Shown: positions 2,042 through 17,153 of the stretch, piece after piece
Layout of the letters: the number at the start of each line of letters is the position of its first letter
Position numbering within the stretch: position 1 is the first letter of the stretch
Virus record (IMG/VR): IMGVR_UViG_2802429219_000011
Coordinates: 1 to 18,574 of that record
Direction: 5' to 3' (one strand)
DNA length: 18,574 nt
Source: a virus
Taxonomy: Duplodnaviria > Heunggongvirae > Uroviricota > Caudoviricetes
Program-made: the position numbers and the translations under genes
The notes under the pieces: model-generated
The model's database searches: none
What the model was told of the DNA's origin: nothing
What the model saw: only the letters and a program-made list of their open reading frames with translations

Positions 2042-2117
<76 letters not shown>

Positions 2118-2120
2118 ATA

Positions 2121-2196
<76 letters not shown>

Positions 2197-2509: not shown

Positions 2510-2538
2510 AATATATGCCTTTTAATCTACTTTTGCAA
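2510..2538 (-). promoter_or_regulatory. Candidate late promoter (pR'-like) overlapping the 3' end of the putative Q gene
   Basis: On the minus strand TTGCAA (2538-2533), 17-nt spacer, TATATT (2515-2510), about 50-70 nt upstream of the tR'-like terminator, mirroring the lambda pR'-6S-tR' arrangement. Confidence 0.35.
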
Positions 2539-3211
2539 CACTTTGCTTTGAAAATGCCGCCTTTTGTTCTGAGCGTGTTCTCATCACAAACAATAAAGCC
2601 TCACTATCCAGACGGTGGAAAATGTGTTTCATTGCAACCCAGTGACCAGTAAATGTTTTGGACCAGTTTTTTGTTGTTACTCCCGCCAGTAATGCCAGTT
2701 CCTGATATTCATAAGTTTCACGCCCAGCCAGCTCACTCTTCACATCCTGTGCCGCCAGCCAGATTAATTTTTTCAGGCGCTCCAGCGTTTTCCCTGCAAT
2801 TTTTCTGGTACCGGATTGGGCGTTAAATTCATTCCACACCCACTGTGTTATCGCAATCTGGTGTTCCCAGCAAATGCTGCCGCTGTAACACCACAGCAAC
2901 CAGGCTTTATGGTGCTCTTCAAGAGACAGAACTGCCCGTCGCCATGATGATGTCGAAAACTCAACCTGACTTACCAGAGGAATTGACGTCCCCTTTGCCA
3001 GCGATTGTTTCCCCGGGATTGGTGGATTATCCCGCGTGACCATTTTTCCAGTCACTTCATCGCGGTACCGGATTTTTTTACGCCTGTAACGCCCTGTATC
3101 GAACATGGCATTCTCCAGCCAGGCTTCAAGCTGGCCTTTTGTTGCCCCACTCAAATCGGCGGTGGCGATAATGAGCTGCTCACGAACAAACTGTAAATAC
3201 TGGTTATTCAT
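2522..3211 (-). CDS. Putative late-gene antiterminator Q (positional call; family not confirmed)
   Basis: ATG at 3211-3209 overlaps the rusA stop (ATGA). 229 aa, lying between rusA and the pR'/tR'-like elements and tRNAs, exactly where lambdoid Q sits. No Cys4 zinc motif is visible, so it is not lambda-type Q; the family is uncertain. Confidence 0.45.
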   Translation of the reverse strand: MNNQYLQFVREQLIIATADLSGATKGQLEAWLENAMFDTGRYRRKKIRYRDEVTGKMVTRDNPPIPGKQSLAKGTSIPLVSQVEFSTSSWRRAVLSLEEHHKAWLLWCYSGSICWEHQIAITQWVWNEFNAQSGTRKIAGKTLERLKKLIWLAAQDVKSELAGRETYEYQELALLAGVTTKNWSKTFTGHWVAMKHIFHRLDSEALLFVMRTRSEQKAAFSKQSVAKVD

Positions 3212-3567
3212 GCGCACTCCAGTTCTGTGATTTTTATCCCCAACCGACCACCAGGAACAGGCAGACCGCGCACAATATTAATTTCATCAAACTGCTCGTC
3301 GTCTATGAGTAGTCCCGCATGCGTCAGCGCATCCAGTAGTGCTTTCAGGATATTGTCCAAGTCACGACGGCGCTTATCCGGTGGCTCTGCAATAATCTTT
3401 ATCGCCAGCCTTCCGGACAGGTTTAATTTCAGTCGCTGCTGGCGAACAATAAGTGCCACATCCCGGCGATAACGCTCACCGGCTTTTGATACAAAATATG
3501 TGCTGCCACGACGTCGCCAGTAGGTGTTCACCGTCGGTGGGTAAGGCAAAACAAACTCTATACGCAT
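3208..3567 (-). CDS. rusA: RusA-family Holliday junction resolvase
   Basis: ATG at 3567-3565 with AGAGG upstream. Product contains PPTVNTYWRRRG ... PDKRRRDLDNILKALLDALTHAGLLIDDEQ ... GGRLGIKI, matching the RusA motifs (PPSNNRYY, DRRRRDLDN, DDAQ) of E. coli RusA. Confidence 0.85.
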   Translation of the reverse strand: MRIEFVLPYPPTVNTYWRRRGSTYFVSKAGERYRRDVALIVRQQRLKLNLSGRLAIKIIAEPPDKRRRDLDNILKALLDALTHAGLLIDDEQFDEINIVRGLPVPGGRLGIKITELECA

Positions 3568-5014: not shown

Positions 5015-5443
5015 TTAAGCTGAGTCCGGCGAATACCAGGGGAAATAAATATCGCTTAACGACGTGTGCTTAAGAACAGAGTCCACCGCCAATTTTAACG
5101 TCAACGACATGAAATTCTCAAAATACCATGAATTTTTCACAAAGAATTTTTCATCGATCAACTCTCCATTCATGATATCAAAGTCCGTAATCAGCTCCAT
5201 CTTTAGCTCAAAAGAGGGTTCTTCATCCCCGGCACCATCTCTATCGGGATACCCTTTTATCGATGGCGAAAATCCAATCCGGAACCAACAAGTACCATCA
5301 TCATCGCGCCCCGAAGAAAATTTAACTTCCTCGATCGAGACCTTAAAAAACCCTCCATCATCACTAGTGTTATCCTTGAAACTACTGGAAACAATATCGA
5401 AACCAGCATACTTAATATTTTGTAACATCAGTGACGCATCCAT
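5015..5443 (-). CDS. Acidic hypothetical protein (orf142), third gene of the hicAB block
   Basis: ATG at 5443 (AGAGG 11 nt upstream), or ATG at 5428-5426 overlapping the hicB stop (TGATG). Asp/Glu-rich with no motif I recognise. Lies in a visibly AT-rich stretch. An antisense ORF (5064-5489 +) also exists, so strand assignment rests on operon context. Confidence 0.45.
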   Translation of the reverse strand: MDASLMLQNIKYAGFDIVSSSFKDNTSDDGGFFKVSIEEVKFSSGRDDDGTCWFRIGFSPSIKGYPDRDGAGDEEPSFELKMELITDFDIMNGELIDEKFFVKNSWYFENFMSLTLKLAVDSVLKHTSLSDIYFPWYSPDSA

Positions 5444-5904
5444 CGCTCACCAGCCTCTTTCTTTTTTGTTCTTGCTGAAGGGGAAATGACATAACCAAAA
5501 GAGAATGCTTTTTCCCAAACGAATGTATCTGTCGTTTCTTCGCTTTCCGAATGAGAATGAACTTCTTTTTTGTCAGCAATCTTTTCTTCGATAGCTTTAC
5601 GCACATAATCATTAAGCGTCGTCTTATCCGCCATTGCAGCCAAAAACGCTTTCTTATGAAGATCGCGACCAATTCTGATGTTAAAAGTACCACTCATTGG
5701 TTTATCAGGAGATTTCCCTAACTGCTTGCATGTGTCGAGATAATCTGTAACAGCTTCTTCAAAAGCCGCCCTTAACCCATCCAGTGTTTCCGCTTCGTAG
5801 GTTACAACATCGTTTACGCACTGAATTTTCCCATGAAGTATGTTATCTTCAAGTGAAACCTCAATGCTGCCAAAATAACCTTTATAACTCAGCACATTAC
5901 TCAT
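5428..5904 (-). CDS. hicB: HicB-family antitoxin (HicB N-domain plus RHH-like segment) with an unusual ~45-aa C-terminal extension
   Basis: ATG at 5904-5902 lies inside the last codons of hicA. Product begins MSNVLSYKGYFGSIEVS ... YEAETLDGLRAAFEEAVTDYLDTC ... KPMSGTFNIRIGRDLHKKA, the canonical HicB pattern (YKGY-GS ... P-KP-SG-F-R----LH-K). The ORF is also open from an upstream ATG at 5919. Confidence 0.75.
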   Translation of the reverse strand: MSNVLSYKGYFGSIEVSLEDNILHGKIQCVNDVVTYEAETLDGLRAAFEEAVTDYLDTCKQLGKSPDKPMSGTFNIRIGRDLHKKAFLAAMADKTTLNDYVRKAIEEKIADKKEVHSHSESEETTDTFVWEKAFSFGYVISPSARTKKKEAGERWMRH

Positions 5905-6145
5905 AACTATCAATCTCATCCAAAAGATTTTTCACTTCTTTAAGCACATATCCTTTAACAATATTGCCAGGATGTGGGCAATGAAAAGCCACAAGCCTTC
6001 CATTAGCATTGGTAAACTTCCTTCTTGAGCCTGAACCGGTAAGCATTTCGAAACCATAATGCCCAAGCAACGTCACGAGTTCATCCCATGTAAAATCCTT
6101 TGGAAGCTGATTCAGACGCCACCTCAACTTCTCTTTTTTGCTCAT
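5897..6145 (-). CDS. hicA: HicA-family mRNA interferase toxin
   Basis: ATG at 6145-6143. Product contains GFEMLTGSGSRRKFTNANGRLVAFHCPHPGNIVKGYVLKEVKNLL, matching the HicA/YcfA-like core (G-x-GS-x-R-x-F ... HxPHPG ... LL). Confidence 0.75.
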   Translation of the reverse strand: MSKKEKLRWRLNQLPKDFTWDELVTLLGHYGFEMLTGSGSRRKFTNANGRLVAFHCPHPGNIVKGYVLKEVKNLLDEIDSYE

Positions 6146-6373: not shown

Positions 6374-6529
6374 TTACTCCTCAGGTTCGTAAGCTGTGAA
6401 GACAGCGACCTCCGTCTGGCCGGTTCGGATTCGTACCTCGCAGAGGTCTTTCCTCGTTACCAGTGCCGTCACTATGACGGTTAAACAGATGACGATCAGG
6501 GCGATTAACATCGCCTTTTGCTGCTTCAT
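6374..6529 (-). CDS. hokD: Hok-family type I toxin (HokD/RelF-like)
   Basis: ATG at 6529-6527. Product MKQQKAMLIALIVICLTVIVTALVTRKDLCEVRIRTGQTEVAVFTAYEPEE: single TM helix plus the conserved Hok C-terminus (CE-R ... EVA-F-AYE). Matches my recollection of HokD. Confidence 0.85.
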   Translation of the reverse strand: MKQQKAMLIALIVICLTVIVTALVTRKDLCEVRIRTGQTEVAVFTAYEPEE

Positions 6530-6739
6530 AGCCTGCTTCTCCTTGCCTTTCGGCACGTAAGAGGCTAACCTACGTGTGCAAGTCATAGATATGGCCTCAG
6601 ATTAATGTTAAGCGTCTTGCAGGACGCGTAATGTTAACTGGGGCTTTTCTCTATCTGCCGTTGGTGTTCATGCCTGAGACAGATAGCCTCAAGCACCCGC
6701 AGCCATTCTACTTAACTATCCTTTTCCCGCAAATCGTTT

Positions 6740-8510: not shown

Positions 8511-8939
8511 TCACAGTACCGCCTCCTGAAAATTACCCTGATAGAAAGCCAGTACACGCTGCATAGCTTCGCTCTTCCGGCACTCGCGACAGATTATGTT
8601 CAGATGTCTGTCGTAGCGGCGTATTTCTCCGTCTGGTAACTTTCGAATCAGTGTCTGGTCAGTTGTTTTCTCCGGTGTCTTACGCCATTCACGATACGCC
8701 TGCTCTGATGCAAAAACACCGTATTCCCCGGACATGTATAAATCACCACAAGCCAGTACATCCACAAGGCAGCGTCGGACCGAATGCCAGCCAGCTCCCG
8801 TCGCTCTCTCCAGTTGCGACATCGTCATGCGTTCATTTTTGCGTACCAACCCGATAATTCGTGCCTTCAGCTCTTCCCGCTGTTCGGGTGTAAAAACTTT
8901 TGCCACAAGCCCTCCTGAAAAATCACCTTCACAATTCAT
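8511..8939 (-). CDS. ren: Ren-like protein
   Basis: Start ATG overlaps the P-like stop (ATGA), as for lambda P/ren. C-terminus ICRECRKSEAMQRVLAFY parallels lambda Ren FKECRQSAAMKRVLAVY as I recall it. Confidence 0.55.
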   Translation of the reverse strand: MNCEGDFSGGLVAKVFTPEQREELKARIIGLVRKNERMTMSQLERATGAGWHSVRRCLVDVLACGDLYMSGEYGVFASEQAYREWRKTPEKTTDQTLIRKLPDGEIRRYDRHLNIICRECRKSEAMQRVLAFYQGNFQEAVL

Positions 8940-9601
8940 ACAAAACCAGCTGCCTTCCGGCGTTCATACTCCCGTTTCAGCAACTCAATTGGTGTTGGCC
9001 CCGACGGGCGTTTGGGTGCCGCCAGTTGTCGCCGGACTGGCGGAACGCTCAGGCCGTTACTAACATGCTTTGCCCATTTCGTCAGTTGCCGTTCTGCAAG
9101 CCGTTTTAACTCCCCTTCGGTCATCTGCCGCTCAATCCCCTTTGAACGCATCTCGAGACAAATGTGATACAGCACAGGCTGAGGCCACGGATATTTATCG
9201 CTTCCGTCGTATCGCCAGGACTCATTGCGCCAGCGGCGGTACTCCTCCATCACAGCATCCACCGTCAGACCAAATGGATTTGCCCCACTCTCCAAAATCA
9301 GCGCCACAAACTCAGCCAGGTCCGGAGGCCATGTTTCACCCGCCCGGCAGCGATCCATGCACTGGCGGCAGACCTGCCGGATTTGCTGCTCAGTCATCGC
9401 GCCAATCTGTGCAATCCAGAGCTTCGAAGGTGCGGCCCCGTTCTTCTGGGTCCAGCGGTTCGAATAAACCTCCCCCATGAGTTCCCACAACTTCCACGCC
9501 GTTTCCGTCGCGGATAAATCCGTTTTCACGTTCCCACTGCTCACGTGCTGCCCGAATTTCCTGAACTGCCCGTGATGCGGTGCCACCTGGCGTTGCTGCA
9601 T
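8936..9601 (-). CDS. Lambda P-like replication protein (helicase loader)
   Basis: ATG at 9601-9599 with GGGGG upstream; 221 aa. The block WPPDLAEFVAL ... YPWPQPVLYHICLEM ... MTEGELKRLAERQL parallels lambda P (FLPSPGQFVAW ... YPWKSNAHYWLV ... LTDAELRRKAADEL). Its first ~70 codons overlap the O-like frame. Confidence 0.7.
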   Translation of the reverse strand: MQQRQVAPHHGQFRKFGQHVSSGNVKTDLSATETAWKLWELMGEVYSNRWTQKNGAAPSKLWIAQIGAMTEQQIRQVCRQCMDRCRAGETWPPDLAEFVALILESGANPFGLTVDAVMEEYRRWRNESWRYDGSDKYPWPQPVLYHICLEMRSKGIERQMTEGELKRLAERQLTKWAKHVSNGLSVPPVRRQLAAPKRPSGPTPIELLKREYERRKAAGFV

Positions 9602-10430
9602 GGTTTACCCCCTTGCTGACTGGTTTAACCTGCGCCCTGACGTGATTTACGTGACGGGCGAATTTCTGCTCCCACTGAATCTGCGTAAATACTTTCCCCT
9701 CCGCTGCCCAGTAGTCCCGGAAGGCGGCAAGTTCAGCAGGTGTAAATTCTGTCTCCGGCAAAGCCATCCCCCACAACGCAGCCCGTCGTCGAAAATCCCG
9801 TGACGGATACCAGCTATCGGTCATCGGAAATTTTCCGATGGGTTCGCTCAGGCCATCCAGGAATACAGGGGGTGCTGCCTGTAACGACAAAACTTCCTGC
9901 TCACTGGTCGGAGCACTCTCGCGTGCGTTATGTGTGGGGGTTAGATCTTTGGGTTCCTTTGGGTTCCGTGATCCGTTTTTGGGTGTCTTTGATGGAAAAT
10001 TTGGGTGTCTTTGGTTATTTTCCATGCAGTTAAGAGTTCCGTTTTTGGGTCTGTTTTGTGCTGAAACATAACCATTTTCGGTACTGTTTTTATTAACAGC
10101 ACCAATTTTACCCACCTTTAAAGACTCCCGTTTTTGGGTGTATTCAGGCTCGGCAACACTTTCTTCTACACCGATAAGTCGGTACACCACAATTTGCTTT
10201 GTTCTGCCTTTTCTCTCACCGGTATCAACAATTAACCCAATCTCCATCAGGTGTCGTAAGCTGTCCTGCACAGTCTTTTTGTTCAGTTCCGTTACTTCTG
10301 CCAGGGCAGATACAGACGGGTATGCACACAAATCGGCACCGCACATATCAGCAAGCCAGGTCAATACTGACTTACTGGATGAACTGCCGGTTTTCACCTT
10401 TTTAGCCCATCGTAGTGCATCGATACTCAT
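9390..10430 (-). CDS. Phage replication initiator (O-like): N-terminal winged-HTH domain and DnaT-like C-terminal region
   Basis: The ORF track starts at a TTG (10505); I prefer the ATG at 10430-10428 (MSIDALRWAKKV...) preceded by GGGG. The N-terminus matches the phage replication-protein HTH pattern (LTWLADMCGADL ... PSVSALAEVTELNKKTVQDSLRHL). Contains the iteron array. Confidence 0.65.
   Translation of the reverse strand: MSIDALRWAKKVKTGSSSSKSVLTWLADMCGADLCAYPSVSALAEVTELNKKTVQDSLRHLMEIGLIVDTGERKGRTKQIVVYRLIGVEESVAEPEYTQKRESLKVGKIGAVNKNSTENGYVSAQNRPKNGTLNCMENNQRHPNFPSKTPKNGSRNPKEPKDLTPTHNARESAPTSEQEVLSLQAAPPVFLDGLSEPIGKFPMTDSWYPSRDFRRRAALWGMALPETEFTPAELAAFRDYWAAEGKVFTQIQWEQKFARHVNHVRAQVKPVSKGVNHAATPGGTASRAVQEIRAAREQWERENGFIRDGNGVEVVGTHGGGLFEPLDPEERGRTFEALDCTDWRDD
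9948..10146. repeat. Iteron array (putative origin of replication) inside the O-like gene
   Basis: TTTGGGT core at 9948, 9958, 9978, 10000, 10044 and 10133. Longer copies CCGTTTTTGGGTGTCTTTG (9973-9991), AAATTTGGGTGTCTTTGG (9997-10014), TCCGTTTTTGGGTCTGTTTTG (10038-10058), CCCGTTTTTGGGTGTATTC (10128-10146). A moderately AT-rich stretch lies at 10061-10120. Confidence 0.6.
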
Positions 10431-10953
10431 ACGAACCCCAGACAGACATTTGTTTATCTGCAAAATAATGTTGGTATTGCTGACGATACGCATGCTTGAA
10501 AGCAATAGCTTTTTCTATAAGCTCGTCAGTCTCACGTTCCACAACAGCGGGATCCGCAAAAAGCAGCCCGGACTCCACCACATCGCCATATTCTTTGTTT
10601 AACCCGGCGATCATGTACGTAATGCTTTTTCCGTCAGTAATTTCACAATACAACCTGAAATCACTGATCCGGATAGCCTCCATAATTGCCGGAATCAACG
10701 CCGTGAATTTTTCACGCTTATCCCTGGTGTCAATAGCTTTCCAGCGTTCGAATATCTTCACTCTGTTAACGCCAAGCGCCCGTTGATCAACCGCGCCATC
10801 ATCAAATGTGACACGTTGAACATCGATGTTCGGGCGTTCTTTCAGAGTCCAGAATGCCTCTGTGATTAATATCGTCGCCTGCTCCTGCGTCATTCCTGGT
10901 CGACATACCCAGGCATCCAGAGCCTCGCGAGCCTGCTCAGGAGTGAATATCAT
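10402..10953 (-). CDS. Hypothetical early protein between cro-like and O-like genes (cII/YdaT position)
   Basis: ATG at 10953-10951 overlaps the last 17 nt of the cro-like gene. 183 aa, no motif recognised with confidence. Confidence 0.5.
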   Translation of the reverse strand: MIFTPEQAREALDAWVCRPGMTQEQATILITEAFWTLKERPNIDVQRVTFDDGAVDQRALGVNRVKIFERWKAIDTRDKREKFTALIPAIMEAIRISDFRLYCEITDGKSITYMIAGLNKEYGDVVESGLLFADPAVVERETDELIEKAIAFKHAYRQQYQHYFADKQMSVWGSYEYRCTTMG

Positions 10954-11209
10954 TGTTCACCGCCAGTGATTCATTCGACATACACTTATTTCCACAAGGT
11001 AGTCCATCTGTTGGGTTGGGATAAATGTCAGGGCGAATTTCATGCGGGGTAACTTCCCACTTCATTAACTGGCATAACGGAATTACCTGCTTTGGGGGAA
11101 CGCCAAAGCTAAACCATTGCCAAACGGTCTGTTGAGCGACCCCCATATAGCGACCTATTTCAGCTTGAGTGTATTTCTGCCTAATTTTTTCGCGAGTGCT
11201 ATCTAGCAT
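10937..11209 (-). CDS. Cro-like HTH regulator (YdaS-type)
   Basis: ATG at 11209-11207 with strong SD AGAGGAGGG. HTH segment TQAEIGRYMGVAQQTVWQW. Divergent from the repressor gene. Confidence 0.7.
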   Translation of the reverse strand: MLDSTREKIRQKYTQAEIGRYMGVAQQTVWQWFSFGVPPKQVIPLCQLMKWEVTPHEIRPDIYPNPTDGLPCGNKCMSNESLAVNNDIHS

Positions 11210-11244
11210 TTTGCCCTCCTCTGAAAACTATAAACAAAGCCTAC

Positions 11245-11279
11245 AATAAAAAACTGTACGCAATCAACAGTTTTTTATT
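11245..11279. promoter_or_regulatory. Operator: perfect 13-bp inverted repeat with 9-bp spacer in the divergent cro/repressor control region
   Basis: AATAAAAAACTGT (11245-11257), spacer ACGCAATCA, ACAGTTTTTTATT (11267-11279). Confidence 0.6.
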
Positions 11280-11317
11280 GTGATGCTTTTAACAGTATTT
11301 ACCTGTAAAATTGAATA

Positions 11318-11719
11318 ATGATGAACGCCCTAGAAGTATCTATGTACAGAATCAGCAAGCTTCTTCAGGAAACTGGATGGAGCCAGGCTGAACTTGCCCG
11401 TAGAATTGGTGTGACACAACAAACAGTTCAACAATGGGTCAGCGGTAAGGCTACGCCTAAAGCCTCAAGTTTGGATAAACTGGTTGAGGTTACAGGGCAT
11501 CCATTGCATTGGTTTTTATTGCCTCCTGATGAGGGGGAGCAAATTTTCACCCCTGACACAATGAAAATTGGTCCTCGCCAACGCGAACTGCTCCAAGCTT
11601 TTAGTGCGTTTCCAGAGGAAGACCAAGAAAAAATGCTTCAAGAAATCAAAGACAAGAAAAAATCAATGGAAGAAACTATTGCCCGATGGTTGGCGGCACA
11701 AAAAAGCCGCCGGGCGTGA
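11318..11719 (+). CDS. Prophage repressor, XRE-family HTH (DicA/PaaR2-like)
   Basis: HTH segment SQAELARRIGVTQQTVQQWVSG. C-terminal region (SAFPEEDQEKMLQEIKDK) parallels DicA (NALPESEQDTQLAEMRAR) as I recall it. Divergent from cro-like and directly upstream of the antitoxin/toxin pair. Confidence 0.7.
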   Translation: MMNALEVSMYRISKLLQETGWSQAELARRIGVTQQTVQQWVSGKATPKASSLDKLVEVTGHPLHWFLLPPDEGEQIFTPDTMKIGPRQRELLQAFSAFPEEDQEKMLQEIKDKKKSMEETIARWLAAQKSRRA

Positions 11720-11746
11720 CCACTGTACAAGAAGAGGAGTTATGCC

Positions 11747-11938
11747 ATGAGTACAGCCCTTTCTCCGATAGTTTCAGAATTCGAAACTACCGAACAAGAA
11801 AACAGTTACAACGAATGGTTGCGCGCTAAAGTGACGTTAAGCCTTGCAGACCCTCGCCCCGCAATTCCACATGACGAGGTAATGGCTGAAATGGAAAATC
11901 TTATTGCTCAAATTGCTGCAACTAACAGGAGCGAGTAA
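11747..11938 (+). CDS. Small antitoxin (PaaA2-like, 63 aa)
   Basis: Stop overlaps the ParE start (TAATG). Size, position between a DicA-like regulator and ParE, and acidic composition fit the paaR2-paaA2-parE2 arrangement reported in E. coli O157 prophages. Confidence 0.55.
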   Translation: MSTALSPIVSEFETTEQENSYNEWLRAKVTLSLADPRPAIPHDEVMAEMENLIAQIAATNRSE

Positions 11939-12225
11939 TGTTACCCATTTTATGGCTACCATCTGCTCGCGATGATTTGCGTCAGGTCGTAACCTATATT
12001 GCTAAGGAAAACATTCCTGCAGCACGCAGACTAAAAATACGTATTGAAACGTCTGTTTTAACCCTCTCTGAGCACCCATATCTATATCCGCTAAGTGATC
12101 GAGTATCCGGTTTGCGGGAACTTGTGGTTCACCCTAATTATATCGTGTTGTACCGAGTAGCAACTTCAAGCATTGAAATTGCGAATATTGTGCATGCCCG
12201 TCGACAATTTCCCTTCTCTATCTGA
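11938..12225 (+). CDS. parE: ParE/RelE-superfamily toxin
   Basis: Product MLPILWLPSARDDLRQVVTYIAKEN ... LSEHPYLYP ... GLRELVVHPNYIVLYRVATSSIEIANIVHARRQFP fits the ParE pattern (W-P-A-DL---YI ... G-REL-V--NY---YR ... I-I--I-H-R). Confidence 0.8.
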   Translation: MLPILWLPSARDDLRQVVTYIAKENIPAARRLKIRIETSVLTLSEHPYLYPLSDRVSGLRELVVHPNYIVLYRVATSSIEIANIVHARRQFPFSI

Positions 12226-12241
12226 GCCGAACAATTTCCAT

Positions 12242-12266
12242 ACTCCCTCATTCGAGGGAGTTTTTT
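12242..12266 (+). terminator. Intrinsic terminator after parE
   Basis: ACTCCCTC(12242-12249)-ATTC-GAGGGAGT(12254-12261) hairpin followed by T6 (12261-12266). Confidence 0.55.
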
Positions 12267-12278
12267 GTCTAAGACAAC

Positions 12279-12320
12279 AATTAAAAACTGTTGACACAAA
12301 ACAGTTTTTAATTGTAGATT
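12279..12320 (+). promoter_or_regulatory. Second operator copy overlapping a strong candidate promoter for the dicB-type operon
   Basis: AATTAAAAACTGT (12279-12291), 9-bp spacer, ACAGTTTTTAATT (12301-12313). Consensus -35 TTGACA (12291-12296) sits inside the operator, with TAGATT -10 at 12315-12320 (18-bp spacer). Confidence 0.55.
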
Positions 12321-12496
12321 ATTTTTACCAACCCACCCCGCCCCACAGAATGCAGGGCAATACTTCGAGTTACCAGGCAGTGGTCAGGGGTTAAGTAGCC
12401 AGCCCGAGGCGTAAGAACATGACGGCAGGGTTCAACTTTAACTATGCAGCAGGTTTTTGTTCCGCTACCCCGGCGTTAAGGGGAAATGAGGTCAAC

Positions 12497-12652
12497 ATGG
12501 ATACTATCGATCTTGGCAACAACGAATCTCTGGTGTACGGCGTGTTTCCCAACCAGGACGGCACGTTCACCGCGATGACGTATACCAAAAGCAAAATGTT
12601 TAAAACCGAAAATGGTGCCCGTCGCTGGCTGGAAAGAAACTCAGGTGAGTGA
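12497..12652 (+). CDS. ydfA: YdfA-like small protein (51 aa)
   Basis: ATG at 12497 with GAGG 5 nt upstream. Product MDTIDLGNNESLVYGVFPNQDGTFTAMTYTKSK... matches my recollection of Qin YdfA. The ORF-track start (12419) is an upstream in-frame extension. Confidence 0.65.
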   Translation: MDTIDLGNNESLVYGVFPNQDGTFTAMTYTKSKMFKTENGARRWLERNSGE

Positions 12653-12653
12653 T

Positions 12654-12782
12654 ATGGATTTCGACACAATCATGGAAAAGGCTTACGAAGAATACTTCGA
12701 AGGCCTTGCCGAAGGCGAAGAAGCTCTCAGCTTCAGTGAGTTTAAACAGGCGCTTTACAGTTCGGCAAAATCTATCGACTAA
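12654..12782 (+). CDS. ydfB: YdfB-like small acidic protein (42 aa)
   Basis: ATG at 12654, 1 nt after the ydfA-like stop. Product MDFDTIMEKAYEEYFEGLAEGEEALSFSEFKQALYSSAKSID. Below the ORF-track cutoff. Confidence 0.55.
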   Translation: MDFDTIMEKAYEEYFEGLAEGEEALSFSEFKQALYSSAKSID

Positions 12783-14678: not shown

Positions 14679-17153
14679 ATGAGTAAAGTCTTTATTTGCG
14701 CCGCCATTCCGGACGAACAGGCAATAAAGGAAGAAGGTGCAGTTGCTGTAGCCACTGCCATTGAAGCCGGTGACGAACGCCGCGCCCGTGCCAAATTTAC
14801 CTGGCAATTCCTGGAGCAATATCCGGCTGCTCAGGACTGCGCTTATAAATTTCTTGTCTGCGAGGATAAACCCGGCATGCCCCGCCCTGCTATCGACTCC
14901 TGGGATACCGAATATATGCAGGAAAACCGCTGGGATGAGGAATCCGCTTCCTTTATTCCGGTCGAACCAGAATCCGATCCGATGAACGTCAATTTTGACA
15001 AGCTGTCCCTTGAAGTACAGAACGCGGTCCTGGTTAAGTTCGGTACATGTGAAAACATCACCGTTGATATGGTGATTAGCGCACAGGAGTTACTGCAGGA
15101 AGACGTGGCGACATTCGACGGGCATATCGTTGAAGCACTGATGAAAACACCAGAAATTAACGCTATGTATCCGGAACGCAAACTGTTCGCTATCGGATGG
15201 GGTAAACACAAATGTAAGCCGGGTGCCAAATGGCCCGAAATTCAGGCTGAATTACGTAACTGGAAAAAACGGCAGGACGCGGAGCGCAAAGAGACTGGAA
15301 AATACACGTCTGTTGTTGATCTCGCCCGCACCAGAGTCAACCGACAGCACACTGAAAACTCAGCAGAAAAAATCCCCCCTGTCACTGCAGTTATTCGTCG
15401 CGAATACAAGCAGACATGGAAAACATTGGATGATGAACTGGCCTACGCTCTGTGGCCTGGTGACATTGATGCCGGAAACATTGACGGCAGCATCCATCGC
15501 TGGGCAAAAAATGAAGTTATCGAGAGCGATCGCGAAGACTGGAAGCGTATTTCCGCATCAATGCGCAAACAGCCTGATGCCATTCGCTATGACCGTCAGA
15601 CTATTTTTGGCCTTGTCCGTGAGCGTCCGATCGACATTCACAAGGATCCCGTGGCACTGAACAAATACATCACTGAATACCTGGCGACAAAGGGCGTGTT
15701 TGAGGATGAAGAAACAGACCAGAACACTGCTGATATTCTCCAGCCGTCAGCAGCACAAACTGATGCAGTGGAAACTGAAGTATCTGATACCAAAAAAAAT
15801 GAAAGCGCGCTGGAAACTGAACCATCTGTAGAGCGTGAGGGGCCGTTCTACTTCCTCTTCACCGATAAGGATGGCGAAAAATATGGTCGTGCAAACAAAC
15901 TTTCTGGTCTGAATAAGGCGCTGGCTGCCGGGGCTACTGAAATCACGAAAGAAGAATATTTTGCCCGCAAAAACGGCACATACTCAGGTTCACAACAAAA
16001 TACTGGTGCATCTGACACGACCGCACAACCAGAGCCGGTAAAAGTTACCGCTGACGAAGTAAACAAAATTATGCAGGCAGTCAGCCAGCCTGACGCCAAT
16101 CAGTTGCTTGCTGCCTCTCGCGGAGAATTTGTTGCAGGGATTAGCGACCCGAATGATCCGAAATGGGTGAAGGGGATTGAAACCCGCGATTCTGTGTACC
16201 AGAACCAGCAAGAAACGGAACAGAACGACCAGAAAGCGGAACAAAACAGCCAAAATGCGTTACAAAACGAGCCAGAAACGAAACAATCCGAACCAGTAGC
16301 GCAACAAGAACCAGAAAAAACCTGCACCGCCTGCGGTCAGAGCGGTGGCGGCAACTGCCCTGATTGTGGCGCGGTGATGGGCAACGCAACATATCAGGAA
16401 ACATTCGATGAAGAGAATCAGGTTGAAGTTCAGGAAAATGATCCGGAGGAAATGGAAGGCGCTGAACATCCACACAAGGGGGACACTAGCGGCGCTCAGG
16501 ACCACGCCAGCGATAGTGAAACTGGTGAGGCGGCAGATCCCTTAATTAATGTGAATGGTCATCATAAAAGCACATCCACCAGCAGAGTGTGGTACCACCT
16601 GATGATCGACCTTGAAACGATGGGTAAAAAAAGTAATGCCCCCATCGTGGTTATTGGTGCTGTGTTCTTCGATCCGCAGACCGGGGAAATCGGGCCAACA
16701 TTTTATATCGTTATCAGCCTGGTTGACGCTATGGACACGGGTGCTGTACCTGATGGTTCCACCATCGAATGGTGGCTTGCTCAGTCCAGCGAAGCCAGAT
16801 CTGCAATTTTAGTTGATCAGGTAAAACTGGTTGACGCTCTTATTCAATTTCGGGAATTCATCAATGAGTACTCGAATGAAAAATTCGTTCAGGTATGGGG
16901 CAATGGTGCAACTTTCGACAACACTATTTTACGAACCTCGTACGAACGCCTGAACATCCCCTGCCCGTGGCGTTACTACAACGATCGCGATGTACGTACA
17001 ATCGTTGAACTGGGAAAAACTATCGACTTCGATGCCAGAACAGTTATTCCATTTGAAGGCGTGCGCCACCATGCGCTGGATGATGCCCGTCACCAGGCGA
17101 AATACGTTTCAGCAATCTGGCAAAAACTGATCCCGAATCAGGCTGATTTTTAA
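14679..17153 (+). CDS. Large early protein (824 aa): N-terminal YdfE-like region, Q/E-rich low-complexity linker, C4 zinc-ribbon motif, C-terminal DEDDh-type 3'-5' exonuclease domain
   Basis: C-terminal motifs MIDLETMG (Exo I, D-x-E), WGNGATFDNTIL (Exo II) and HHALDDARHQ (Exo III, H ... D). CTACGQSGGGNCPDCG gives C-x2-C-x8-C-x2-C. GAGG 11 nt upstream of the ATG. Confidence 0.8.
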   Translation: MSKVFICAAIPDEQAIKEEGAVAVATAIEAGDERRARAKFTWQFLEQYPAAQDCAYKFLVCEDKPGMPRPAIDSWDTEYMQENRWDEESASFIPVEPESDPMNVNFDKLSLEVQNAVLVKFGTCENITVDMVISAQELLQEDVATFDGHIVEALMKTPEINAMYPERKLFAIGWGKHKCKPGAKWPEIQAELRNWKKRQDAERKETGKYTSVVDLARTRVNRQHTENSAEKIPPVTAVIRREYKQTWKTLDDELAYALWPGDIDAGNIDGSIHRWAKNEVIESDREDWKRISASMRKQPDAIRYDRQTIFGLVRERPIDIHKDPVALNKYITEYLATKGVFEDEETDQNTADILQPSAAQTDAVETEVSDTKKNESALETEPSVEREGPFYFLFTDKDGEKYGRANKLSGLNKALAAGATEITKEEYFARKNGTYSGSQQNTGASDTTAQPEPVKVTADEVNKIMQAVSQPDANQLLAASRGEFVAGISDPNDPKWVKGIETRDSVYQNQQETEQNDQKAEQNSQNALQNEPETKQSEPVAQQEPEKTCTACGQSGGGNCPDCGAVMGNATYQETFDEENQVEVQENDPEEMEGAEHPHKGDTSGAQDHASDSETGEAADPLINVNGHHKSTSTSRVWYHLMIDLETMGKKSNAPIVVIGAVFFDPQTGEIGPTFYIVISLVDAMDTGAVPDGSTIEWWLAQSSEARSAILVDQVKLVDALIQFREFINEYSNEKFVQVWGNGATFDNTILRTSYERLNIPCPWRYYNDRDVRTIVELGKTIDFDARTVIPFEGVRHHALDDARHQAKYVSAIWQKLIPNQADF

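Follow-up and report, generated by a model that had tools for sequence, protein, structure and literature searches.

The locus described here raises the question of whether a regulator gene that precedes an antitoxin gene and a ParE-type toxin gene is the third component of a toxin–antitoxin system, the immunity repressor of a prophage, or both at once. It lies within an 18,574-nt stretch of viral DNA (Caudoviricetes; IMG/VR record IMGVR_UViG_2802429219_000011), which is referred to as the window in its entirety. Judged from its sequence, the locus is very probably a lambdoid prophage immunity operon, allelic to the paaR-paaA-parE system that the E. coli O157:H7 prophage Sp4/CP-933M carries. 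The gene identities, their layout, the operator repeats and their co-variation with the repressor type, and the purifying selection on parE are established directly.

Operon layout and transcription end

Three open reading frames run co-directionally on the plus strand in the order repressor, paaA, parE—that is, regulator, antitoxin, and toxin in tight linkage—and share one terminator at their end:

11318–11719, plus strand: repressor of the PaaR1 type, 133 aa, with an N-terminal HTH_3 domain and the conserved PaaR C-terminal domain
11747–11938, plus strand: paaA antitoxin, 63 aa, with its own Shine–Dalgarno sequence GAGGAG at 11734–11739
11938–12225, plus strand: parE toxin of the ParE family, 95 aa
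12242–12267, plus strand: intrinsic terminator closing the repressor-paaA-parE operon

The gap between the repressor stop and the paaA start is 27 nt, and the paaA stop codon TAA (11936–11938) overlaps the parE start codon ATG (11938–11940) as TAATG with one base in common. The linkage, the overlap, and the terminator, all of which the earlier note had pointed out, were found in place, with position 12266 being the end of the T run. The terminator stem (12242–12261) comprises eight pairs, five of them G–C, with a 4-nt loop and is followed by TTTTTTG. The 50-nt stretch around it folds with −14 kcal/mol (z = −3.0 against shuffled sequences), and the terminator is also kept in the Sp4 and KY180 loci. 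A consensus promoter scan of 10800–12700 called no internal paaA-parE promoter in the repressor gene, which is weak negative evidence.

Architecture of the antitoxin–toxin pair

The 63-aa protein belongs to the PaaA family. It matches Pfam PaaA2 (PF21217; E = 2.6e-21) and NCBIfam NF050103 (93.6 bits, cut-off 50), and its top match in the PDB is PaaA2 itself (3zbe/5cw7, E = 2.9e-22). No HTH, RHH, or ParD match was obtained for it in Pfam or NCBIfam. Hence, it shows the length of about 63 aa and the lack of a DNA-binding domain that characterize PaaA, and the pair differs from a canonical ParD–ParE system, as its antitoxin is of the PaaA type without a ribbon–helix–helix domain. For the PaaA homologue of O157, it is reported that the protein is protease-labile, being degraded by ClpXP and ClpAP (PMC8630535).

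The 95-aa protein is a member of the ParE family (Pfam ParE_toxin, PF05016, E = 1.4e-14) with ParE2 as its top PDB match (5cw7_B, E = 1.5e-36). Compared with the allele of E. coli O157:H7 Sakai, parE shows a dS of 1.29 and a dN/dS of 0.07. This purifying selection identifies it as a real, constrained gene and rules out a chance open reading frame. For paaA, the ratio of non-synonymous to synonymous differences is 6:1 against Sakai and 5:1 against KY180, counts that are too small to speak of relaxation.

Architecture of the repressor

The repressor contains an HTH_3 domain (Pfam, E = 2e-13), and no peptidase S24 match was found in Pfam; it does not have the self-cleavage domain of the lambda CI type. 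Because it comprises only 133 aa and no S24 domain, it counts as a non-cleavable repressor of the DicA/PaaR2 type, and PaaR2 was likewise noted to be without a peptidase domain (PMC8630535). Its C-terminal domain carries the motif LLQxFxAFPEE...IARWLAAQKxRRA that is common to PaaR2 and five other variants. A PDB search with the repressor gave nothing past generic HTH domains such as those of 434 repressor and HipB. Across the paaR comparisons, dN/dS ranges from 0.03 to 0.10.

The label "DicA-like" that the gene had been given holds in the sense of distant homology only. The repressor is 28% identical to K-12 DicA over 110 aa (E = 9e-13), and it aligns from residue 11 to 130 with positions 9–131 of the 135 in the NCBIfam DicA model (NF007257). 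Its score is herein 53.4 bits, as opposed to a cut-off of 101 for the DicA subfamily. By sequence, the repressor is a distant homologue of DicA and no DicA orthologue.

The immunity region and its neighboring genes

The position of the repressor is that of a lambdoid immunity repressor, as had been proposed: it is divergent from ydaS- and ydaT-like genes, and operator-like palindromes lie upstream of it as well as around a PL-like promoter downstream. The neighboring genes are the following:

10402–10953, minus strand: ydaT-like gene encoding 183 aa, candidate for a CII-like activator; it comes second in the rightward early operon
10937–11209, minus strand: ydaS-like gene encoding 90 aa, candidate Cro analogue that diverges from the repressor gene
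12497–12652, plus strand: DUF1391 gene, ydfA-like, with which the leftward early operon begins

The ydaT-like product matches Pfam YdaT_toxin (E = 1e-5) and PHROG phrog_163, "CII-like transcriptional activator" (E = 6.5e-40), and is 36% identical to YdaT of CP-933P/Sp12 over 90 aa. The ydaS-like product matches Pfam YdaS_toxin (38.9 bits, cut-off 30) and PHROG phrog_35, "transcriptional repressor" (E = 3.6e-22). It shows no similarity to YdaS of CP-933P (E = 0.34), which is expected for a different immunity type. The DUF1391 gene (Pfam, E = 4.7e-27) is given with the length of its annotated homologues (L001, L002, and L011; 51 aa, 156 nt); the longest open reading frame starts at 12419.

The overall gene order is Q, replication genes, ydaT, ydaS, repressor-paaA-parE, DUF1391, DUF1482, exo, xis, int, and six heteroimmune E. 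coli prophages show this layout as well. The locus thus combines a divergent Cro-like gene, OR operators, a second operator set at PL, and a position between the replication and the early-left genes. Each of the six immunity types has its own palindrome, which is repeated at both OR and OL (as operator/TTGAC/operator at PL), and the operator sequence changes together with the repressor's DNA-binding domain among these relatives. The PaaR C-terminal domain, on the other side of the protein, is kept together with paaA-parE across the heteroimmune types. As a side observation, the cassette conserved across these prophages starts midway through the repressor gene, with the C-terminal domain.

Operators and promoters

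A 15-bp palindrome, ACAGT-N5-ACTGT, occurs in three copies before the repressor gene and in two around the promoter past the terminator; it is absent from the rest of the window. The control elements are as follows:

11243–11257: operator O1, ACAATAAAAAACTGT, in the OR-like cluster 11243–11306
11267–11281: operator O2, ACAGTTTTTTATTGT, in the same cluster
11292–11306: operator O3, ACAGTATTTACCTGT, in the same cluster
11238–11267, minus strand: candidate PR toward ydaS, −35 TTGATT at 11267–11262 and −10 TAGGCT at 11243–11238
11306–11311, plus strand: candidate PRM −10 TAAAAT, the repressor ATG following after 6 nt
12277–12320, plus strand: OL/PL-like control region with operators at 12277–12291, ACAATTAAAAACTGT, and 12301–12315, ACAGTTTTTAATTGT

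The OR-like operators are spaced by 24 and 25 bp from center to center within the 108-bp repressor/ydaS region. The degenerate form ACARTN5AYTGT has four exact matches in the 18.5-kb window, with 0.06 expected and none of 200 shuffled sequences reaching four. The fifth site deviates by one mismatch, and none of the five falls outside the two control regions. In the Sakai Sp4 and KY180 loci, the 15-mers are unchanged and the O1–O2 spacer is variable. Repressor binding is predicted at all five. To the best of the literature consulted, no description of ACAGT-N5-ACTGT as the PaaR1-type operator, present three times at OR and twice at OL, was found, and it is put forward here as a prediction.

The PL-like promoter consists of TTGACA (12291–12296) and TAGATT (12315–12320) with an 18-nt spacer; two exact copies of the operator lie at its flanks and overlap it. 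It agrees with the consensus at 10 of 12 positions and is the sole promoter-like site called in 10800–12700. A direct repeat, D1, and the inverted repeats I1/I2 tie the OL/PL region to OR, and the region is kept in relatives. The scan flagged the 39-bp A/T-rich palindrome at 12277–12315 as terminator-like. This was rejected in favor of an operator pair since the repeat also occurs at OR and embeds the PL −35. A further candidate, a structured RNA in the leader past PL (about 12321–12420) that is common to all immunity types, was dismissed with a folding z of 0.51. An Rfam search of 12200–12700 left the leader unmatched, the sole match being a chance miRNA over the OL palindrome.

The candidate PR is read straight from the sequence and is built like the PL-like promoter: its 18-nt spacer contains O1, and direct repeat D1 (45 nt, 78% identity) encloses it. 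It is weak, agreeing with the consensus at just 7 of 12 positions, and was missed by the promoter scan. For the candidate PRM, O3 overlaps the −10 and O2 abuts a poor −35. The position of O3 suggests that the repressor may repress its own promoter. The ATG is not preceded by a Shine–Dalgarno sequence, which implies a leaderless repressor mRNA. Such an mRNA would be in line with paaR2, for which 5′ RACE and N-terminal sequencing demonstrated a leaderless transcript (PMC8630535), and with lambda cI.

No copy of the published YdaT operator, TTGATT-N6-AATCAA, is present: the best site has at least three mismatches, and five matches were counted with 14.7 expected by chance. Hence, YdaT would here be of a different specificity type, and a PRE-like route is only putative.

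Comparison with related systems

The closest relative is the trio of prophage Sp4 of E. coli O157:H7 Sakai. Repressor, PaaA, and ParE are 97, 90, and 84% identical to ECs_1069, ECs_1068, and ECs_1067, respectively, the first of which is annotated as "phage repressor protein" in the Sakai record. Sp4 equals CP-933M (PMC2884950), CP-933M carries a homologue of paaR2-paaA2-parE2 (PMC8630535), and the Sp4/CP-933M trio presumably corresponds to paaR1-paaA1-parE1 (Hallez et al. 2010). Both loci share the protein lengths of 133, 63, and 95 aa, the TAATG-type overlap, the terminator, the ydaS neighbor, the downstream DUF1391 gene, the OR region, and the OL palindromes with identical 15-mers. They differ in parE, whose alleles are distinct (78% nt identity, dS 1.29, as opposed to about 96% nt for paaR and paaA) with the divergence breakpoint near 11960. 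Furthermore, the ydaT-like product comprises 183 aa here and 141 aa in Sp4, and the replication genes differ.

The match to paaR2-paaA2-parE2 of CP-933P/Sp12, which had been suggested for this locus, is one of family: the same three components are present, but the closest copy is that of Sp4/CP-933M. PaaA is 73% identical to PaaA2 and ParE 65% to ParE2. The repressor is 41% identical to PaaR2 over the C-terminal 98 aa, with the similarity lying mostly in the last 50 or so residues, and the HTH domains are unrelated. Operon order, lambdoid immunity position, divergent ydaS-ydaT, downstream PL/OL, and a peptidase-free repressor are common to both loci. The differences concern the HTH domain, YdaS, the operators (GTTTAGTAA-type there, ACAGT-N5-ACTGT here), and the YdaT operator, which is missing here. 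PaaA1 and ParE2 show no cross-neutralization (PMC4803016), which makes the two types functionally separate.

For CP-933P, it was shown that PaaR2 corresponds to CI, YdaS to Cro, and YdaT to CII, and that PaaR2 represses ydaST and PL/OL (PMC8630535; Jurenas 2021). Since the HTH domain and operators are unlike those of PaaR2, it is the position and the repeats only that point to repression at the present locus. The paaR2-paaA2-parE2 locus stabilizes a mini-F plasmid by post-segregational killing, and steady-state activation of the toxin is absent; in CP-933P, ParE2 activity was undetected in either transcriptional state, and its biological role is a proposal (PMC8630535).

With the lambda cI-rexA-rexB operon, the locus shares a repressor divergent from cro, three OR operators spaced by about 24 bp, a second set at PL, accessory genes that follow the repressor on one transcript, a terminator before OL, and a probably leaderless repressor mRNA. 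In contrast to lambda, only the HTH domain is similar, the self-cleavage domain is absent, the cargo is a toxin–antitoxin pair instead of rexAB, and OL has only two evident operators. DicA–DicC of the E. coli K-12 Qin prophage combines a homologous repressor of the same two-domain build with a small Cro-like gene in divergent orientation, and the genes from ydfA (DUF1391) to dicB lie downstream. However, dicA is directly followed by ydfA without a toxin–antitoxin pair, and the operators are of the TGTTAG...CTAACA type.

Proposed mechanism and significance

In the proposed mechanism, the 133-aa repressor would bind the three 15-bp palindromes of the repressor/ydaS region and the two at the PL-like promoter, and would thereby silence both early operons. 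Bound to O2, it would probably stimulate its own weak promoter, the transcript of which is apparently leaderless. In the lysogenic state, this transcript would also carry paaA and parE. PaaA, devoid of a DNA-binding domain, would wrap around ParE and neutralize it. If the immunity region were lost or replaced, PaaA would no longer be resupplied and ParE would be set free. The pair would hence serve the prophage or its immunity region as an addiction module, and is probably cargo inserted between a DicA-type repressor gene and PL, where lambda has rexAB. Repression, leaderless translation, toxicity, neutralization, and addiction are herein transferred by analogy from the work on PaaR2.

The coupling of the repressor to a toxin–antitoxin pair is thus supported as the earlier note had read it, but it is not new: the immunity repressor doubling as toxin–antitoxin regulator has been experimental knowledge for the paralogue PaaR2 of CP-933P since 2021 (PMC8630535). 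The locus is a typical example of an arrangement known from O157:H7 prophages, and its toxin–antitoxin pair probably helps the prophage to stay. As an allele of a characterized system, its importance goes little past correct annotation. Possibly useful by-products are the prediction of the PaaR1-type operator, the evidence for a two-gene module, and the start of the conserved cassette within the repressor gene.

Distribution and alternative readings

Among 5426 complete E. coli genomes, 510 contain the repressor with OR and 509 the repressor with the toxin–antitoxin pair, a linkage that is inflated by clonal O157:H7 genomes. In 50,697 phage records, no PaaR1-type module was found; the sole matching record is phage Evi, which is of the PaaR2 type with parE2 unannotated. 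Outside the enterobacteria, all 37 paaA-parE loci of other Proteobacteria with upstream DNA are without a PaaR/DicA homologue within up to 3 kb. Since paaA-parE occurs there as two genes without PaaR, the pair is best viewed as cargo in a repressor operon. Hence, of the claim of a three-gene toxin–antitoxin unit, the operon of three stands, and the sequence data favor a two-gene pair as its cargo. The module would be widespread and captured by enterobacterial lambdoid immunity operons, which supports the insertion hypothesis already raised for the pair (PMC8630535).

An autonomous tripartite system, in which the regulator would in effect be the DNA-binding part split off from an antitoxin, dedicated to regulating the pair and with no immunity role, is distinctly unlikely. 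It would account for the tight three-gene operon, for the linkage in 509 of 510 E. coli genomes, and for the retention of the PaaR C-terminal domain with paaA-parE, and the system was in fact first described as a three-component toxin–antitoxin system (Hallez 2010, as cited in PMC4803016). Yet the same palindrome surrounds the strong promoter of the unrelated early-left operon, the regulator sits at the dicA/cI position divergent from Cro- and CII-like genes, and PaaR2 represses ydaST and PL (PMC8630535). DicA, moreover, has the C-terminal domain without a downstream toxin–antitoxin pair, and the 37 stand-alone loci speak against an obligate third component. A decaying remnant in a cryptic prophage that has lost toxin and repressor function is barely credible: the three frames are intact, parE and paaR have the low dN/dS values given above, and operators, promoter, and terminator are conserved. 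The O157:H7 homologues do sit in cryptic prophages (PMC8630535), and paaA exhibits the non-synonymous excess of 6:1 and 5:1, but these counts are too few to show relaxation.

The immunity operon with an addiction cargo also has to be weighed against a role of paaA-parE mainly as an anti-phage module of abortive infection or exclusion that is expressed in the lysogen, instead of as an addiction module. The pair occupies the rexAB slot of lambda, after the repressor and before the terminator and OL/PL, and lability of the antitoxin, as reported for its homologue (PMC8630535), could release the toxin if a phage halts host transcription. This reading is highly unlikely, as the paralogue data concern plasmid stabilization by post-segregational killing with no steady-state toxin activation, and as none of the PADLOC defense models match PaaA or ParE, the regulator giving generic HTH matches only. 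The pair paaA-parE may chiefly be an exclusion device, or may be shaped by toxin-allele swapping and antitoxin co-adaptation under phage or prophage conflict instead of by simple addiction; jointly, these two are improbable.

A related observation concerns the paaA/parE junction. Relative to Sp4, nucleotide identity drops sharply here from 96 to 78%, and the changes in paaA are mostly non-synonymous, which could reflect such allele swapping and co-adaptation.

Prophage context and architecture of the operon

The window represents a lambdoid prophage's early arm, in which the operon encoding a regulator, an antitoxin and a ParE-type toxin is embedded as follows.

2522-3217, minus strand: Q antiterminator gene
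8936-9601, minus strand: P-like replication gene
9390-10505, minus strand: DnaT/O-like replication gene
10402-10953, minus strand: ydaT-like gene (PHROG "CII-like activator", E=6.5e-40)
10937-11209, minus strand: ydaS-like gene
11318-11719, plus strand: regulator ORF, 133 aa (HTH_3, E=2e-13)
11747-11938, plus strand: antitoxin ORF (paaA), 63 aa (PaaA2/PF21217, E=2.6e-21; NCBIfam NF050103, 93.6 bits vs cut-off 50)
11938-12225, plus strand: toxin ORF (parE), 95 aa (ParE_toxin, E=1.4e-14)
12242-12261, plus strand: stem of an intrinsic terminator (8 pairs, 5 G-C, 4-nt loop), then TTTTTTG
Past the operon, plus strand: DUF1391, DUF1482, exonuclease (14679-17153), excisionase, integrase

The antitoxin stop codon TAA (11936-11938) and the toxin ATG (11938-11940) have one base in common, reading TAATG, and the 27-nt gap between regulator and antitoxin contains GAGGAG at 11734-11739. 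The terminator folds with -14 kcal/mol over a 50-nt stretch (z = -3.0 vs shuffles); position 12266, at which the earlier note ended its feature, is the last base of the T-run. ORF calls and terminator scan thus reproduce the tight linkage, overlap and closing terminator described there, and the family models concur with the labels repressor, antitoxin and ParE toxin. Its description is accurate and its interpretation right, with the refinements below.

The arrangement ydaT-ydaS, regulator-paaA-parE and DUF1391 is repeated in six other Escherichia coli prophages with different regulator types, five of which carry dicB farther downstream. In Qin of K-12, ydfA (DUF1391) directly follows dicC and dicA without a toxin-antitoxin pair, unlike in the window. 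None of the complete E. coli genomes covers at least 80 % of the window; the highest coverage is 66 %, at 92.6 % identity. For the immunity module, identity to these genomes peaks at 95.7 %. The prophage combines known modules in a new mosaic. Downstream of the Q gene lie two tRNA genes (2046-2196, minus strand), at the place of the annotated tRNA-Gly and tRNA-Thr of the related SC407 locus; tRNA genes at this site are common in lambdoid and Stx-type prophages.

Identity of the paaR-paaA-parE copy

This type of locus and the coupling of repressor and toxin-antitoxin are already known. The system was described in 2010 (Hallez et al., as cited in PMC4803016), experiments on the paralogue, published in 2021, showed a prophage repressor acting as toxin-antitoxin regulator (PMC8630535), and the Sakai genome record labels the orthologue in prophage Sp4 a phage repressor. 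Small additions are the predicted operator/promoter layout of the PaaR1 type, the occurrence of paaA-parE as a two-gene pair beyond the enterobacteria and the start of the conserved cassette within the repressor gene.

The top solved-structure matches are E. coli O157 PaaA2 (3zbe/5cw7, E=2.9e-22) and ParE2 (5cw7_B, E=1.5e-36). Both O157:H7 Sakai copies, Sp4 and Sp12, were fetched as references.

Protein identity of the window trio to the Sakai copies
Sp4, ECs_1069/1068/1067 (same lengths, 133/63/95 aa): regulator 97 %, antitoxin 90 %, toxin 84 %
Sp12, PaaR2/PaaA2/ParE2: regulator 41 % (C-terminal 98 aa; HTH region unrelated), antitoxin 73 %, toxin 65 %

The proposed match to paaR2-paaA2-parE2 hence holds for system family and layout, whereas the nearer Sakai copy is Sp4. 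Since Sp4 is CP-933M (PMC2884950), which is said to carry a homologue of paaR2-paaA2-parE2 (PMC8630535), these identities mark the trio as an allele of the CP-933M/Sp4 paralogue, taken to be paaR1-paaA1-parE1, and not paaR2-paaA2-parE2. According to a review, PaaA1 does not neutralise ParE2, nor PaaA2 ParE1 (PMC4803016). Other complete E. coli genomes hold still nearer copies, with 99/92/93 % aa identity for strain JNEC-KY180. "DicA-like" applies to the regulator in the sense of distant homology (28 % identity over 110 aa to K-12 DicA, C-terminal domain included), but the curated DicA model scores 53 bits vs a cut-off of 101.

Operators and promoters

The palindrome ACARTN5AYTGT is matched exactly at four sites of the 18.5 kb vs 0.06 expected, a number reached in 0/200 shuffles; a fifth site has one mismatch. 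All five are confined to the control regions before the repressor gene (OR-like) and after the terminator (OL-like).

11243-11257, 11267-11281, 11292-11306: OR-like operators in the region from which the ydaS-like and repressor genes diverge, centre-to-centre distances 24 and 25 bp
12277-12291, 12301-12315: OL-like operators just past the terminator, flanking and overlapping the PL-like promoter
12291-12320: PL-like promoter, TTGACA-18-TAGATT, the region's sole strong sigma-70-like call

The two regions form a 45-nt direct repeat of 78 % identity. The loci of Sakai Sp4 and KY180 keep the 15-mers unchanged, and the O1-O2 spacer is variable. Each heteroimmune relative, that is, a prophage with another regulator type, repeats its own palindrome at both OR and OL positions, and its PL shows the same operator/TTGAC/operator build: ACAC-N7-GTGT in locus L006, AATAGCAnnGCTATT in L007, ACACTTT...AAGTGT in L008, TGTTAG...CTAACA in Qin and a GTTTAGT-type in Sp12, which agrees with the published PaaR2 consensus GTTTAGTAA (PMC8630535). 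Of the evidence available here, this co-variation of palindrome and repressor N-terminal domain speaks most strongly for the 133-aa protein as the immunity repressor, with the palindromes as its predicted operators, and it bears out the immunity-repressor position assigned earlier.

Read from the sequence, a candidate PR (minus strand, TTGATT-18-TAGGCT, 7/12 consensus positions) contains O1 in its spacer. The candidate PRM has its -10 element TAAAAT at 11306-11311, 6 nt before the ATG, and a poor -35 abutting O2. As a Shine-Dalgarno sequence is also lacking, the repressor mRNA would be leaderless, as demonstrated experimentally for paaR2 and lambda cI (PMC8630535).

Although their operators differ, all heteroimmune paaR-type prophages examined share a conserved PL leader (~12321-12420, ACCAACCCACCCCGCCCCACAGAATGCAGGGCAATAC...). 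It has no Rfam match and its folding energy is not unusual; it is possibly a nut-like or regulatory site.

The paaA-parE pair as cargo

Repressor and OR occur in 510/5426 complete E. coli genomes, 509 of them with the pair downstream, counts that include many clonal O157:H7 genomes. Repressor and pair are almost invariably linked in this species. The block conserved across heteroimmune types begins mid-gene, with the C-terminal ~45 aa of the repressor (LLQxFxAFPEEEQ...KKESME..IARWLAAQKxRRA), and runs on through paaA-parE; HTH domain, operators and ydaS are exchanged.

Outside enterobacteria, one genome per species was scanned with a ParE alignment, yielding 38 loci in Acetobacteraceae, Acidithiobacillus, Comamonadaceae, Pseudomonas, Halomonas and others. 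A PaaA homologue (median 64 aa), usually overlapping parE by one base, lies directly upstream in 37/37 loci with upstream DNA, and none of the 37 has a PaaR1/PaaR2/DicA homologue within up to 3 kb (tblastn, E <= 0.01). Because these pairs lack such a homologue and their upstream neighbours are heterogeneous, the ancient, mobile unit appears to be the two-gene pair. The evidence favours this pair, carried in the repressor operon, over the three-gene unit of the earlier note. In lambdoid prophages of enterobacteria, a DicA-type repressor operon would carry paaA-parE as cargo at its 3' end, in the slot of rexAB in lambda, which supports the insertion hypothesis already raised in PMC8630535.

In E. 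coli OkiPb01713 (L009 1669-2532), tandem regulators precede paaA-parE, a PaaR2-like one of 123 aa and then a PaaR1-like one of 153 aa, whose altered C-terminus reads into paaA. They adjoin an IS3 insertion in ydaT, and the region has the appearance of an immunity region that underwent recombination or duplication. Escherichia phage Evi (LR597642.1) carries PaaR2 and PaaA2 (98 % identical) and a parE2 unannotated in its record (L050 2780-3055, LR597642.1 ~24917-25192), 100 % identical to the O157 protein.

Proposed mechanism and alternatives

By homology to PaaR2/PaaA2/ParE2 (PMC8630535; PMC4803016), the repressor would bind OR and OL, silence the ydaS-ydaT and PL operons and autoregulate, the same lysogenic transcript supplying PaaA and ParE. 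ParE would be neutralised by PaaA, whose homologue is labile to ClpXP and ClpAP (PMC8630535); loss of the region would free ParE and cause addiction. When overproduced, the ParE homologue triggers the SOS response and localises to the nucleoid (PMC8630535; PMC4803016). RecA cleavage of the repressor is not expected, as noted for PaaR2, since a Pfam search of the protein found no peptidase S24 domain.

That the regulator is instead the dedicated DNA-binding half of a split antitoxin is very unlikely: a second operator set sits on PL, the neighbours are Cro/CII-like, DicA is a precedent without a toxin-antitoxin pair, and paaA-parE pairs stand alone elsewhere. An anti-phage exclusion role would suit the rexAB position of the pair, but PADLOC models give no match and published data favour post-segregational killing, making it a little less credible still. 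Decay of the operon is scarcely credible, given intact ORFs and purifying selection on parE (dS 1.29, dN/dS 0.07 vs the Sakai allele) and paaR (dN/dS 0.03-0.10).

A sharp recombination boundary lies at the paaA/parE junction, near 11960 (window 11938-12225 vs 3192-3479 of the Sakai Sp4 locus, L002). Compared with Sp4, paaR and paaA share ~96 % nucleotide identity and parE 78 %. The paaA differences are mostly non-synonymous (6 to 1 vs Sakai, 5 to 1 vs KY180; small counts). Toxin alleles may have been exchanged here with co-adaptation of the antitoxin.

Other toxin-antitoxin loci

The same prophage arm contains a second type II pair (5428-6145, minus strand), whose arrangement agrees with the annotated E. 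coli SC407 locus, and a type I locus.

5897-6145, minus strand: hicA-like toxin (HicA_toxin, E=5e-10)
5428-5919, minus strand: hicB-like antitoxin (HicB, E=1e-17)
6524-6698, minus strand: hok/sok type I locus (Rfam sok, RF01794, 109.5 bits vs gathering score 59)

Three toxin-antitoxin loci hence lie within 18.5 kb of one prophage.
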